A DNA stretch of 64,000 nt from Alphaproteobacteria bacterium (GCA_016699305.1 CP064970.1:157419-221418), one strand, 5' to 3'. Shown: positions 33,078-36,297, counted from the first letter of the stretch. Numbers and translations are program-made. The notes: generated by a model from the sequence alone, not told the origin.

Positions 33078-33791
33078 CTAATTTACTTTAAGGACGTAAT
33101 AAAAAAAATAATGTATGCCTAATTTAATAGGAAAACTGATTTCATTATCATAGATATGAACACAGGCACTCATGACACCCGGCGCATAGTGATCATATGA
33201 AAACGCAGTGTAATAACCAATAAAGTATCCAACAGTATATGTCGCGCCATACAGTGCAAAAGTATCATTTATATCGCTGATTCCAAGAATATTGTTTATT
33301 GCAGCGCATAGCTTTTGTTCAGAAATTGGTAGATATAAAACTAGCTCGTTACTATTTGTTCCAATATTTGGAATTGCCGCGTATCCACCAATAATATATG
33401 GAACATAATCTGTAGTCCAAAAACCTCCACCATCCAAAATTTTATTGGCTCCTTCTGGCGGTTTTTGTAGAACAACTCCACCGCCACTGACATCAAAGAC
33501 ATGGCAAGACTTATCTGATGGTGCATTTGGATTTGTATAGCCACTGACAACATTGTTTTCAAAGCTGATTTGTGTATCTGTGCAGCCCTTTCCCAATACC
33601 CTATCCACAGCAAATTTCACTTCATGGGCATATCCAAGAATGGCCGTTGCCTGTGCTTTGGCTTTGACGGCGGAGGTATCGCTATTGAACGAACCCGACC
33701 CCGCCGCAATGGCAGAGACCAAGACGGCCAGAATCGCCACGATGTACAGAATCGGCCCTATGGCAATGCCACGCTGATGGGTTTGCCTCAT
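33078..33791 (-). CDS. Pilin-like protein, paralogue 1 (basic N-terminus, Gly, ~22-aa hydrophobic helix, conserved Cys pair, variable AT-rich C-terminal half)
   Basis: MRQTHQRGIAIGPILYIVAILAVLVSAIAAGSGSF... The first ~105 aa are conserved with the other two paralogues. The start at 33791 was chosen because it is the start shared by all three. Confidence 0.7.
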   Translation of the reverse strand: MRQTHQRGIAIGPILYIVAILAVLVSAIAAGSGSFNSDTSAVKAKAQATAILGYAHEVKFAVDRVLGKGCTDTQISFENNVVSGYTNPNAPSDKSCHVFDVSGGGVVLQKPPEGANKILDGGGFWTTDYVPYIIGGYAAIPNIGTNSNELVLYLPISEQKLCAAINNILGISDINDTFALYGATYTVGYFIGYYTAFSYDHYAPGVMSACVHIYDNEISFPIKLGIHYFFYYVLKVN

Positions 33792-34178
33792 GCTGTTTGA
33801 CCTTGCCATGCTTCACAGAAACGCAGCCCCCTTGAGAGCCGTGCCCCCCGTTACCCTGTGCGATCATCGGCTTCGCAGCCTGTACCACCCCCAATCCATA
33901 GCAATTTCATTCAGTCCCCGCAAACCAGCCATCCAGGATATTTGAAAGAAACCAACCGTTAGAGGGATCGAAACCGCCAAAAGTCAAAAGACGGTCTCCA
34001 GGGCGAAGGCTGAACCATCGTTCACCTCGAACAGGCCCATAGAGGCCCGTAGGAGTGGCAAGGAATGGGCTGTAGGGAAAAAAGCTAGGGTAGGAGCATC
34101 CAGACCATTTCAGGCCATCTACGGCCCGTTAAAACCCAAAAGTCAAAAGACGGCTCGGCAGGGTAACGAGAAGGCCGC
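33792..34178. repeat. Leader/intergenic repeat, copy 1 (upstream of paralogue 1)
   Basis: Nearly identical to 34930-35322 at an offset of 1140 nt, with a few substitutions and small indels. Confidence 0.85.
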
Positions 34179-34182
34179 ATGA

Positions 34183-34929
34183 TTAGCGGGGGACAAGAAC
34201 TGAACGGAAATAGGTGTACCCACTTGCATTACGTGCCTGTCCACATCCCATCATTTTACCGATAGTTGCCTTGGCGTCATACCCAGATTCATTATCCTTT
34301 GTGTATGAACCGTGAAAATAAAGGTTTAAACTCCCCCAAATGCCACTAGAGTAATTATTCCCAGAACTTAAGATATCTACGCCAAGCATAGTATTAAGTG
34401 CGTTACAAACACTTGGCTTGATGTCATGCGTGACCATGACAAGAGATGCGGGACTTGAGTCAGAACGGCACCCAGCAGAAGGCCCACCCTGATACCCGCC
34501 ACTGGCTGAGCCAACGCCACCAACACACGAGTTCCCATGGTAAACCCAATACCCATTCGTGTAACCTGTTTTAATAGCACTGTAGATATTATCATCAGGC
34601 TTCTTCCAAACAATGCCGCCACCATTGACATCAAAGACATGGCAGGATTTATCGGATGGCGCGTTCGGATTCTCATAGCCACTGACAAAAGGATTTTCAA
34701 AGCTGATTTGTGTATCTGTACAGCCTTTCGCTAGCACTCTTTCGACAGCAAATTTCACTTCATTGGCATATTGGAGAATGGCGGATGCCTGGGCTTTGGC
34801 GCTGACGGTGGAAATATCGCCATTGAACGAACCCGACCCTGCCGCAATGGCAGAGGCGGTGACGGCCAGGAGAGCCACGATGAACAGGATCGGGCCAATG
34901 GCTATGCCGTGCTGATGGGTTTGTCTCAT
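34183..34929 (-). CDS. Pilin-like protein, paralogue 2
   Basis: MRQTHQHGIAIGPILFIVALLAVTASAIAAGSGSF... The track ORF extends to 35034 only because the leader happens to be in frame. Confidence 0.7.
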   Translation of the reverse strand: MRQTHQHGIAIGPILFIVALLAVTASAIAAGSGSFNGDISTVSAKAQASAILQYANEVKFAVERVLAKGCTDTQISFENPFVSGYENPNAPSDKSCHVFDVNGGGIVWKKPDDNIYSAIKTGYTNGYWVYHGNSCVGGVGSASGGYQGGPSAGCRSDSSPASLVMVTHDIKPSVCNALNTMLGVDILSSGNNYSSGIWGSLNLYFHGSYTKDNESGYDAKATIGKMMGCGQARNASGYTYFRSVLVPR

Positions 34930-35322
34930 GCTCCCTGTCTTGTGCCCGTCCTTGACGGAAACGCGGCCCCCTTGAGAGCCGTGCCCCCCGTTACCCTGTG
35001 CGATCATCGGCTTCGCAGCCTGTACCACCCCCAATCCATAGCAATTTCATTCAGTCCCCGCAAACCAGCCATCCAGGATATTTGAAAGAAACCAACCGTT
35101 AGAGGGATCGAAACCGCCAAAAGTCAAAAGACGGTCTCCAGGGCGAAGGCTGAACCACCGTTCACCTCGAACAGCCCCATAGAGGCCCGTAGGAGGGGCA
35201 AGGAAGAGGCTGTAGGGAAAAAAGCTAGGGGGCAAGGAGCATCCAGCCCCTTTCAGGCCATCCACGGCCCGTTAAAACGGGAAAGTCAAAAGATGGTTCG
35301 GCAGGGGAACGAGGAAGCCAGC
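34930..35322. repeat. Leader/intergenic repeat, copy 2 (upstream of paralogue 2)
   Basis: See 33792-34178. Confidence 0.85.
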
Positions 35323-35343
35323 AGTCGCGGCTAGTTTCTCCCG

Positions 35344-36039
35344 CTACCCCCCCCAAACTGTTCTGTTATGCAGCACATAGAAGAAGTAGTGAAGACCCAG
35401 CGGCAATCCTGGTGTTCCAGCATTTGGCATAGACAAATTTATACATCCAAATTGACCATGTTCCCCAGTGCCCCAAGAAGAATAGATGCCCACAAATTTA
35501 TTGAGTACTACAGCGCCGTAAGTACTATTATTACCACCTAAATTTATTATTGCATTGCATATATCATCACTTAACCCGGGCAGAAGTATTGCTATATCGC
35601 CATTCGCAGCATTATTCGTGACTGCACCTCCCATGAGATTCATATAACCAGTAAACACATATGATTGATAGTTTAAGGGAACGGAACTCAAATCAATCCC
35701 GGATGGTGGATTTTTCCAGACAATACCGCCGCCATTAACATCAAAGACATGACAGGATTTATCGGATGGTGCATTTGAATTTGTATAGCCGTTGTCGATA
35801 GGGTTTTCAAAGCTGATTTCCGTATCGGTGCAACCCTTAGCAATCACTCTATCCACGCCGATTTGCAACTCATTGACATATCCAAGAATGGCCGTTGCTT
35901 GGGCTTTGAGTTTAACCGCCGAGATATCACCATTGAACGCGCCCGACCCCGCCGCAATGGCAGCGGCCAGGACAGCTAGAATCGCCACGATGAACAAGAT
36001 CGGCGCTATGGCTATACCGCGCTGATTGGTTCGCCTCAT
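35344..36039 (-). CDS. Pilin-like protein, paralogue 3
   Basis: MRRTNQRGIAIAPILFIVAILAVLAAAIAAGSGAF... The proximal leader (36040-36110) is related to the other two, but the distal part differs. Confidence 0.7.
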   Translation of the reverse strand: MRRTNQRGIAIAPILFIVAILAVLAAAIAAGSGAFNGDISAVKLKAQATAILGYVNELQIGVDRVIAKGCTDTEISFENPIDNGYTNSNAPSDKSCHVFDVNGGGIVWKNPPSGIDLSSVPLNYQSYVFTGYMNLMGGAVTNNAANGDIAILLPGLSDDICNAIINLGGNNSTYGAVVLNKFVGIYSSWGTGEHGQFGCINLSMPNAGTPGLPLGLHYFFYVLHNRTVWGG

Positions 36040-36297
36040 GCTGTTTGTGGCCTTGCCATGCTTTACGGAAACGCAGCCTTCTCAAGCGAGAAGACCGCGC
36101 CCCCCGTTACCCTGTGCGGTCATCGGCTTCCCAGCCTGTACCGCAATCCCGGCCCTAGTGTAGCGTCTGCATAGCGCTGTTGCAATGAGGGGTCCAGGGG
36201 GGCGAGGCCCCCCTGTGATTGTGCGTCAAGTGCTGCAGCACCGAAAGATCAAGGCGTTGGATCATCAAAAATATGACGGGTGGTAAGATCAGACGCC

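Follow-up and report, generated by a model that had tools for sequence, protein, structure and literature searches.

A cassette-borne family of pilin-like proteins, carried by mobilisable plasmids and linked to a type IVB coupling complex, is amplified in an alphaproteobacterial genome

What kind of protein is encoded by three neighbouring genes that agree closely in their first halves and hardly at all in their second, and to which cellular system does it belong? The question is raised by a locus in a 64,000-nt stretch of DNA (hereafter the window), part of a 2,060,775-bp contig of an alphaproteobacterial metagenome-assembled genome (MAG; locus tags IPI58_). An earlier note, made from the sequence alone, had described the genes as a tandem triplet encoding pilin-like subunits of surface or periplasmic fibres, or tip adhesins, under diversifying pressure. 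We find that they belong to an unnamed family of exported-type alpha/beta proteins with a prepilin-like front end, an amphipathic helix with a disulfide loop, and a poorly conserved beta-sheet head. The family is organised in cassettes, is carried by mobilisable plasmids, has been amplified in this genome and is ancestrally operonic with a type IVB coupling complex.

Cassettes, plasmids and a coupling-protein operon

The listing of open reading frames (ORFs) and an alignment both returned the three same-strand paralogues already described, on the minus strand, with lengths and coordinates counted from their common MR(Q/R)T start. Over the first ~105 residues the three copies are 75-82% identical, and C70 and C96 are invariant in all of them. 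Identity falls to 26-27% in the C-terminal halves, where a C-x-A-(I/L)-N..G island is conserved, as had been noticed, together with a terminal Y-x-F-x-x-V-L motif. The two parts also differ in composition: GC content is 0.35-0.46 in the variable halves (0.23-0.41 at third codon positions, GC3) against 0.50-0.52 in the constant halves and ~0.58-0.62 in the flanking genome. For gene 1 the constant and variable values are 0.50 and 0.35 (GC3, 0.50 and 0.23). Intergenic positions 33806-34090 and 34946-35230 are 96% identical, and the ~1,140-bp tandem unit thus spans non-coding DNA too. Units were delimited by blastn of each against the window, in which the repeat motifs of the array are confined to the array; the 57-nt motif D4 has four copies there.

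The repeated unit is a cassette of ~1.15 kb, the layout of which is common to the window units, plasmid copies and many metagenome copies. In order, it consists of a 5' leader of ~80-190 nt, 315 nt of constant coding sequence, ~400 nt of variable coding sequence and a 3' trailer of ~210-250 nt; the trailer has indels that are not multiples of three and is therefore non-coding. The flanks are 84-96% identical, whereas synonymous sites in the adjacent constant half differ at a proportion (pS) of 0.43-0.55, corresponding to a synonymous divergence (dS) of 0.6-1.0. The non-coding flanks are thus more conserved than the synonymous sites of the constant coding part. RNAalifold applied to 13 trailers gave a plausible long-range stem with no covariation, a search of the locus against Rfam gave no match at the gathering or the E-value threshold, and promoter and terminator scans of the locus stayed at background level.

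Plasmid cassettes are bounded by inverted repeats, and their contexts differ on both sides. The arms measure 61-62 nt and are 93-95% complementary in two cases (L019 and L027; L numbers denote loci), with shorter arms of 27-33 nt in L015 and L031. Each arm is made of two small hairpins plus ATTCACCCCAGGATATTT..ACAGGGTAACGG, and one arm hairpin shows compensatory replacement between variants. The window array has no outer repeat arms; its units are joined where AAATATCCTGG meets ATGGCTGG, a junction that recurs in a tandem metagenome copy (L035). We identified neither a transposase for the cassette nor a target-site duplication or empty site. The earlier note had reported neither a recombinase nor an inverted repeat: no inverted repeats are indeed present in 32600-37100, but a tyrosine integrase does lie in the window, at 1524-3080, ~30 kb away. 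Its conclusion that the locus is not an R64-type shufflon stands, given the lack of inverted repeats in this interval and of a recombinase within 30 kb, and the fact that the variants are separate full-length genes. Integron cassettes and repetitive extragenic palindromic (REP) elements were also dropped as candidates, with no integron integrase found and the flank motifs present only in the array.

Small mobilisable plasmids carry close relatives of the window genes. In L015-L018 the cassette comes directly after the gene for a 610-aa TraG/VirD4 protein, on a RepA_C plasmid with a relaxase, NikA/MobC, ParA and ArdC; protein P0036 is a close relative that follows the 610-aa TraG/VirD4 protein on a RepA_C plasmid, independently of the dotL linkage described below. 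The cassette is divergent from mobC and a relaxase gene, and precedes trfA, in L019, and it comes after a MobA_MobL relaxase gene on the 8.7-kb RepA_C plasmid of L023. A position beside relaxase/MobC or MobA_MobL, and TrfA or RepA_C, was found in L001, L015-L020, L023, L027-L029, L031, L034 and L037, and most of the longer metagenome contigs with a cassette have trfA or repA adjacent to it. The cassette is placed between the transfer and replication modules of several different mobilisable plasmid backbones. A tblastn search of 72,556 PLSDB plasmids returned no family homologue, and the IMG/VR viral contigs no family relative.

Activated-sludge and wastewater metagenomes are the source of the small mobilisable plasmids (L015-L019, L023 and the trfA/repA contigs L001 and L027-L037). 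Besides RepA_C or TrfA they encode ParA, ArdC, a serine recombinase, toxin-antitoxin pairs and a NotI-like restriction-modification pair, and iteron-like GGTTATAAAG repeats follow the cassette on them. One 240-aa cassette protein was found on 19 contigs.

A second setting recurs in related genomes. The order there is dotM, an ORF of 170-211 aa, dotL, the family gene, the gene of a REP-associated tyrosine transposase and convergent argS, with gyrB-recF-dnaN-dnaA beyond argS wherever the flank extends far enough. This arrangement was present in 11 loci drawn from species-representative genomes and metagenome contigs (L003, L004, L008, L010, L021, L022, L024-L026, L046 and L047); L014 retains the 3' part only, with the family gene and then the transposase at the contig end. 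The DotM protein matches Pfam DotM_C (E = 2e-49) and NCBIfam DotM/IcmP NF033890 (E = 1.5e-43), and the DotL-like ATPase, of 738-782 aa, matches NCBIfam TrbC_conju (E = 4.7e-122) and thousands of IncI-type trbC genes. The family gene and the end of dotL overlap by 11-26 nt, or the family gene begins 3 nt past the dotL stop; this implies co-transcription of the two and probably their translational coupling. In the tree the dotL-linked copies form one orthologous clade; their products are ~30-35% identical to the window proteins. A suggestion of PBP1A synteny for the large upstream neighbour of these relatives was rejected, as the neighbour is DotL/TrbC. Other paralogues in the relatives adjoin housekeeping genes, often as tandem pairs (L006, L011, L012 and L048).

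The ORF between dotM and dotL encodes a cytoplasmic domain of ~130 aa, a single transmembrane helix and, conserved at the C-terminus, a 'GVPxSADxFLxG' tail. Neither Pfam nor NCBIfam has a match to it, and it may be a new subunit of the coupling complex. The dotL-linked family gene is always followed directly by the transposase gene (Y1_Tnp). Among plasmids, the DotL-like ATPase has its closest homologue (41% identity) on pBSY19_1 of Bosea sp. RAC05 (L044), where a gene for an A24-family prepilin peptidase is located ~7 kb downstream, at 18329-19201; L044 is possibly an independent pairing of a type IVB coupling protein with pilin processing.

A word-indexed search listed 146 relatives of the window proteins. 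An exhaustive profile search gave 3,459 clusters (50% identity) at E<=1e-3, of which 2,484 reached E<=1e-10; the family size of at least 3,459 clusters is a lower bound. None of these clusters bears an informative name, and neither Pfam nor NCBIfam has a model for the family. Because most relatives are located on contigs of 1-5 kb, we conclude that the genes break short-read assemblies; they are now labelled 'hypothetical'. Sixteen further named paralogues lie on the same 2,060,775-bp contig which, added to the three window genes, makes at least 19 copies in 2.06 Mb. Seven of these 16 annotated paralogues (P0062, P0099, P0100, P0104, P0105, P0107 and P0116) start at MAILAVL, inside the hydrophobic segment, and other paralogues of the MAG bear long alternative leaders, such as MCAETAPPP...SG. 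These starts and leaders could be frameshifts of the long-read assembly, real pseudogenes or alternative leaders.

Comparison of 22 paralogues and plasmid copies gave a median identity of 73% for the N-terminal half and 27% for the C-terminal half, and the nearest relatives of a protein's N-half differ from those of its C-half. Each window gene has a closer relative of its C-half elsewhere in the genome than in the array: for gene 1 it is P0099 (62%) and for gene 2 P0096 (65%), against 26-27% for the array neighbours. The plasmid copies are interleaved with the chromosomal paralogues in the tree. Within a single C-type, dS is roughly doubled in the C-half relative to the N-half, and the ratio of nonsynonymous to synonymous divergence (dN/dS) is 0.23-0.57 in the C-half versus 0.10-0.26 in the N-half; among the window copies it is 0.15-0.20 in the constant half. 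This pattern is consistent with recombination or gene conversion that homogenises the flanks and N-halves, and with a less constrained head. Two suggestions of the earlier note can be judged from these figures. The logic of a constant N-terminus and variable C-terminus, with exchange through conserved DNA, is borne out by the discordant nearest relatives of the two halves and by flanks and N-halves that are less divergent than the C-halves. The proposed diversifying pressure is not: mean dN/dS is 0.23-0.57 in the variable half, gene-wide positive selection was not found (dN/dS <0.6), and diversifying selection is not demonstrated.

Protein layout and a possible role

In 251 sequences the leader has a median length of 11 aa and a net charge of +2. 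The Gly that ends it (Gly8) is invariant wherever its column is occupied, and closes a (Q/E)(R/S)G motif, with Q or E at position -3 in 89% and R or S at -2 in 69%. An uncharged run, of median 27 residues, follows the Gly. The family has in this way the short basic leader, Gly and then ~20 hydrophobic residues of a class III signal peptide. The hydrophobic segment is the best-conserved region of the protein, with a column identity of 0.81 among close and 0.45 among distant members, and occurs in two sub-types, in which the Gly is followed by IA(I/L)GPILF or by (N/S)(V/A)(L/I)F.IL. A second Cys pair, C161/C199, is kept in at least 90% of 130 distant relatives. AlphaFold modelled the gene 3 protein (231 aa) with a predicted local distance difference score (pLDDT) of 86 at full length and of 88 for residues 37-231 (predicted template-modelling score, pTM, 0.86). 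In the model, a helix at residues 12-31 and a Gly-rich break are followed by a second helix at 39-67, a disulfide loop that is well ordered and a sheet of five strands into which one helix is inserted.

All three window proteins have a weak N-terminal match to NCBIfam GspK over its first 47 positions (E 0.015-0.18; 11-15 bits against a cutoff of 130), and in an hhalign comparison with E. coli GspK (probability 38%, 28 columns) the QRG and hydrophobic stretch of the family fell on its QRG cleavage motif. With E. coli GspG the QRG was also in register, in an alignment reaching into the head helix (probability 21%). The NCBIfam prepilin models had no match to the window proteins, and Pfam had, over 130 diverse members, only two weak matches, to archaeal Pilin_N (E = 0.004). 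The family shares with the GspK/PilX type the absence of Glu5, but neither its homology nor its operon position, and the consensus G-(F/M)(T/S)L(I/L)E (Pfam N_methyl PF07963, TIGR02532) does not fit it. The protein is pilin-like in layout and falls outside the superfamily's sequence definition; we have not filed it as a type IV (pseudo)pilin because the defining N-terminal consensus fails and there is no significant structural match.

Pfam, NCBIfam and PDB profiles also gave no homology to a named Dot/Icm or Tra/Trb protein. We considered the possibility that the protein is DotI/TraM, and rejected it as no VirB8- or DotI-like structure was among the Foldseek matches. A polymorphic toxin, with a constant N-terminus, an AT-rich toxic C-terminus and an immunity gene, was rejected as well, since the head and the constant part form one domain, the downstream DNA is conserved and non-coding, and no immunity ORF is present.

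What might such proteins do? The reading that we favour, though as a possibility somewhat short of probable, is that they are Glu5-less, non-polymerising pilin-like subunits that serve as swappable parts for contact specificity in transfer-linked events, diversified through their conserved flanks with plasmids as shuttles. The protein would sit in the inner membrane with its head in the periplasm, and a prepilin-type peptidase would cut after the invariant Gly. Lacking Glu+5, it may act as a non-polymerising cap or minor subunit, in the manner of GspK and PilX, or as a membrane partner of the coupling complex. The variable head would set which partner cell or surface is engaged in contact-dependent events linked to type IV transfer. 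The repertoire of at least 19 copies would be made and homogenised by recombination through the conserved flanks and N-halves, plasmids acting as shuttles.

Several results weigh against this proposal. Glu+5 was found in 0 of 193 sequences and Phe+1 in one, in line with the earlier note's remark that the canonical G-F-T-L-I-E is missing, and N_methyl was matched by neither the three window proteins nor 130 diverse members. The Gly-rich linker after the membrane helix is predicted to be non-helical, unlike the continuous alpha-1 helix of classical pilins. Type IVb pilins ranked first in Foldseek searches of the PDB with both the full and the truncated model (TcpA, 8uhf_E, and the enterotoxigenic E. 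coli pilin 9iuf_A, with PilA1 and PAK pilin lower), but the best matches were not significant (E 0.61-0.65, probability 0.13-0.16, template-modelling score (TM) 0.30-0.42). Of the pilin architecture claimed earlier, then, the layout of leader, Gly, hydrophobic helix and head holds, whereas a significant fold match (E ~0.6), Glu+5 and a match to N_methyl or TIGR02532 are all missing. Profile searches of PDB sequences found no pilin beyond the hydrophobic helix (geopilin N-terminus, E 0.24); that match and the others, to an odorant-binding protein and a light-harvesting helix, were noise. A prepilin peptidase was found neither in the window nor within 10 kb of family members. Pfam on the 44 ORFs of the window and phmmer with E. 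coli GspD/E/F/G-K/O agree with the earlier note that the window holds no prepilin peptidase, pilus ATPase or secretin. No gspH/I/J-like, pilus or type II secretion system (T2SS) neighbours occur within 10 kb in ~47 loci (~466 kb), and no other type IVB secretion gene within 10 kb of the dotM-dotL loci. The window copies themselves adjoin no coupling protein, their neighbours being PBP1A and HtpG; operon linkage to type IVB genes belongs to the orthologous subgroup of 11 loci and not to the three window genes.

An alternative is that the proteins are uncleaved and bitopic in the inner membrane, in which case the N-terminal helix would pack on helices of the DotL/DotM/ORF complex and the periplasmic head would be a determinant of entry exclusion or of self or kin recognition, functionally akin to R64 ExcA or ColE1 MbeD. 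Plasmids would then carry their own allele, and the chromosome would gather many alleles to exclude many donors. Fast evolution and allele specificity are typical of exclusion proteins, which have no family model in common. All of the operon partners are proteins of the inner membrane (DotM, the one-helix ORF and the N-terminal helices of DotL), the family gene overlaps the dotL stop, and on plasmids it lies inside the transfer region, beside oriT, relaxase or coupling protein; the envelope topology is compatible, and the Gly-rich linker, missing Glu+5 and absence of pilus genes nearby all suit a plain anchor. Such an anchor would not be expected to have an invariant boundary Gly, a (Q/E)(R/S)G motif and a leader of variable length, however, and a 2-Mb genome would not usually devote at least 19 copies to exclusion. 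There is, moreover, no similarity in sequence or fold to known exclusion proteins or Dot/Icm components, and we regard this explanation as unlikely, if worth keeping in view. A further proposal, which we hold to be rather doubtful, combines the coupling complex with the pilin-like subunit in an unrecognised envelope module: a DotL/TrbC-type ATPase complex (DotM, the ORF with one transmembrane helix, and DotL) would have its own Glu5-less pilin-like subunit, the gene of which, in the window lineage, would have become an inverted-repeat-bounded, plasmid-shuttled cassette with at least 19 chromosomal copies and interchangeable heads that choose the cells to be engaged or excluded when DNA or protein is transferred on contact.

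The proteins could instead be ordinary, if divergent, minor (pseudo)pilins of a type IV pilus or T2SS, or tip adhesins for adhesion or prey recognition, their plasmid and dotL contexts being incidental. The same architecture and fold evidence as supports the proposed contact-specificity subunits would count here, the Joint Genome Institute (JGI) labels three members 'pseudopilin PulG', and some MAGs with relatives are labelled Micavibrio. Type IV pili are present in cultured M. aeruginosavorus, in whose T2SS annotation GspC, G, H and K are missing (PMC3189940); Bdellovibrio recognises prey with a family of several paralogues that combine constant N-termini with variable tips (PMC10769870). Yet a dotL linkage with overlapping frames is conserved in 11 loci despite ~30-35% identity to the window proteins, on a plasmid the gene comes after that of a second, unrelated coupling protein (TraG), and no pilus or T2SS gene stands beside any copy. 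Micavibrio identity is also not established for the window organism, the HtpG of which is ~62% identical to its nearest named relatives, and incidental context strikes us as improbable. Still less credible, in our view, is a mobile cassette that is selfish or neutral, has inverted repeats at its borders and owes its spread to plasmids and recombination; its passenger would have an unrelated periplasmic role, such as immunity to an exported toxin or binding of it, and its copy number would say little on host function. The ~60-nt inverted repeats on plasmids, one with a hairpin showing compensatory changes, are what such an element would have, as are the occurrence of one module on several replication and mobilisation backbones, flanks more conserved than synonymous sites, an AT-rich coding part and the REP-associated tyrosine transposase that always follows the dotL-linked orthologue. 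Against it, neither a transposase, a target-site duplication nor an empty site was identified, the window copies are without outer repeat arms, and the cassette has no accompanying partner gene. Purifying selection on the constant half is clear (dN/dS 0.10-0.26), and the head forms a single domain with the constant part and is not a toxin or immunity module standing apart.

Coordinates and neighbouring features

The features of the array, and the genes on either side of the dotL-linked pair, are listed in Table 1. The leader of gene 1, which is conserved in plasmid copies, carries GGTACAGGCTGCGAAGCCGATGATCGCACAGGGTAACGG, plus a hairpin and then CGTTTC ~35 nt before the ATG; a terminator-like hairpin lies at 33841-33824. 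Alignment with plasmid leaders places a degenerate relic of the outer hairpin of the plasmid-type inverted repeat upstream of the gene 3 leader (to ~36225), and the gene 3 trailer is 84-91% identical to plasmid copies. The gene 1 trailer holds an extra partial copy of its own first motif (32793-32857). The array is flanked by the PBP1A gene (30611-32629, plus strand) on one side and, on the other, by a 215-aa ORF (36298-36945, minus strand) and then HtpG. This ORF, directly upstream of the array, has no Pfam or NCBIfam match and no detected kinship to the cassette family. No other plasmid-derived DNA was found in the window.

Table 1. Positions of the cassette features in the window and of genes in dotL-linked loci
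Feature	Sequence	Position	Strand	Remarks
Whole tandem array	Window	32793-36160	-	Three ~1,140-bp cassette units; direct-repeat families D1-D7, spacing 1,110-1,157 bp
Gene 1, 237 aa	Window	33078-33791	-	Family hidden Markov model, E = 4e-93
Gene 1, constant half	Window	~33477-33791	-	
Gene 1, variable half	Window	~33078-33476	-	AT-rich
Gene 1, 5' leader	Window	33811-33900	-	Conserved; 97% identity to gene 2 leader; exact 39-mer match
Gene 1, 3' trailer	Window	32793-33013	-	87% identity to gene 2 trailer; left end of array
Gene 2, 248 aa	Window	34183-34929	-	
Gene 2, constant half	Window	34615-34929	-	
Gene 2, variable half	Window	34183-34614	-	
Gene 2, 5' leader	Window	34930-35040	-	Conserved; alignment with other units and plasmid leaders
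Gene 2, 3' trailer	Window	33960-34170	-	Non-coding, conserved; comparison with other trailers, indel lengths
Gene 3, 231 aa	Window	35344-36039	-	
Gene 3, constant half	Window	35725-36039	-	
Gene 3, variable half	Window	35344-35724	-	
Gene 3, 5' leader	Window	36061-36142	-	Conserved; 80% identity to gene 2 leader
Gene 3, 3' trailer	Window	35100-35313	-	Non-coding, conserved; 92% identity to gene 2 trailer
ORF between dotM and dotL	L003	448-1002		
ORF between dotM and dotL	L008	1846-2397		
ORF between dotM and dotL	L010	7100-7669		
ORF between dotM and dotL	L024	7096-7662		
ORF between dotM and dotL	L026	7076-7711		
ORF between dotM and dotL	L046	3280-3792		
Y1_Tnp gene	L008	5437-6120		
Y1_Tnp gene	L010	10778-11470		
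Y1_Tnp gene	L014	514-1203		
Y1_Tnp gene	L021	1404-2087		
Y1_Tnp gene	L024	10778-11449		
Y1_Tnp gene	L026	11048-11728		
Y1_Tnp gene	L046	6767-7438		

Several other features of the window were recorded. The tyrosine integrase mentioned above is of the P4 type and adjoins a type I secretion set composed of HlyD (4010-5437), an ABC exporter with a C39 peptidase (5444-7606) and an RTX protein (7758-13112) of 1,784 aa with 33 calcium-binding repeat matches; 1524-13112 is probably a genomic island. A second local duplication occupies 13271-16112. Its ORFs 13271-14065 and 14523-15560, near-identical over their first ~230 residues, encode Cys-rich proteins with a signal peptide and no Pfam match, and ORFs 14078-14608 and 15573-16112 have the same terminal 45 residues. 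Genes for a LuxI-type autoinducer synthase (27377-28123) and a cytochrome P450 (25972-27399) overlap at the start of the latter, which suggests a modified acyl-homoserine-lactone signal. The cluster at 48702-52160, with dCTP-deaminase-like, thymidylate-synthase-like (with PterinBD-DUF4346), HAD hydrolase and ParB-CE genes, looks like a pathway of nucleotide or DNA base modification.

Relation to known systems and meaning

Type IV pilins and T2SS pseudopilins (GspK, PilX/PilK type) resemble the family in their basic leader with QRG before the hydrophobic stretch, their ~22 conserved hydrophobic residues, a helix on a beta-sheet head, conserved Cys pairs and a constant N-terminus with a variable head; their Glu5-less cap subunits share with it the lack of Glu+5. 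They differ in that the family has no match above noise to N_methyl, TIGR02532 or GspK, has Ile, Asn or Ser at +1 and Pro or a hydrophobic residue at +5, breaks its long helix with a Gly-rich segment, and combines a size of ~230 aa with a fold without significant PDB match. Moreover, its genes are never in an operon of the gspH-K or fimU-pilVWXE type and are tied instead to coupling proteins and plasmid transfer regions.

A functional parallel would be PilV, the tip adhesin of the thin pilus of plasmid R64 (IncI1), where type IVB transfer also goes with partner specificity conferred by a pilin-like protein with constant N-terminus and exchangeable C-terminus, the role proposed here for the family. 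The order dotM-orf-dotL mirrors the R64 order trbA-trbB-trbC (DotM, unnamed, DotL), and the DotL homologue matches TrbC_conju (E = 5e-122). In contrast to the R64 shufflon, Rci and sfx repeats are absent here, and variants are separate full-length paralogues or cassettes rather than products of segment inversion in one gene. The family protein is half as large as PilV, is without detectable homology to it, and is accompanied by neither a pil operon nor a prepilin peptidase.

Multi-copy repertoires of fibre subunits are known from Neisseria pilE/pilS and from Bartonella Trw, the tandem-amplified pilus genes of a type IV secretion system. Both have multi-copy conserved and variable parts, tandem arrays and an implied role of recombination through conserved DNA, and in Bartonella the repertoire is linked to type IV secretion. 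Unlike the promoterless silent cassettes of Neisseria, the copies here are full-length, with their own leader and start codon, and no guanine-quadruplex (G4)/pilE-type expression locus was identified; unlike those of both genera, they are also plasmid-borne, and they have no homology to VirB2 or VirB5. Mobile insertion cassettes, elements resembling miniature inverted-repeat transposable elements (MITEs) and integron cassettes are alike in having one passenger gene in a ~1.2-kb unit with conserved ends, several unrelated backbones and chromosomal amplification, but no transposase, integron integrase, attC-like site or target-site duplication was identified for the present cassette, and the window copies stand head-to-tail without outer repeat arms. 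The chimeric MAT fibre proteins of Bdellovibrio recall the family by their ~20 paralogues in a small genome, with conserved N-termini and diverse C-terminal tips, which serve there to recognise many partners (PMC10769870). They are, however, trimeric and phage-tail-fibre-like, without a Gly-motif membrane helix or a link to plasmids and coupling proteins, and a predatory lifestyle is not established for the window genome. The mechanism of variation differs from those of R64, Neisseria, Bartonella and Bdellovibrio: here whole-gene cassettes are found on plasmids and in arrays.

A literature search returned nothing relevant on a Micavibrio-DotL link or on pilin-like genes of mobilisable plasmids. 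The coupling to DotL/TrbC and TraG, the conservation of the flanks beyond synonymous sites and the size of this unnamed family appear to be undescribed. They raise the questions of how mobilisable plasmids without a mating apparatus of their own affect partner choice or exclusion, what role an isolated dotM-dotL module has near the replication origin, and how the non-coding flanks of a cassette outlast synonymous sites in conservation. If an envelope module of the kind outlined above exists, it would be the bacterial equivalent of a specificity pilus paired with a DNA translocase. If the proposed role in contact specificity is true, a large unnamed family would join the few systems that hold a library of interchangeable contact-specificity parts, and the ties of this library would be to type IV coupling proteins and mobilisable plasmids, not to a pilus operon.

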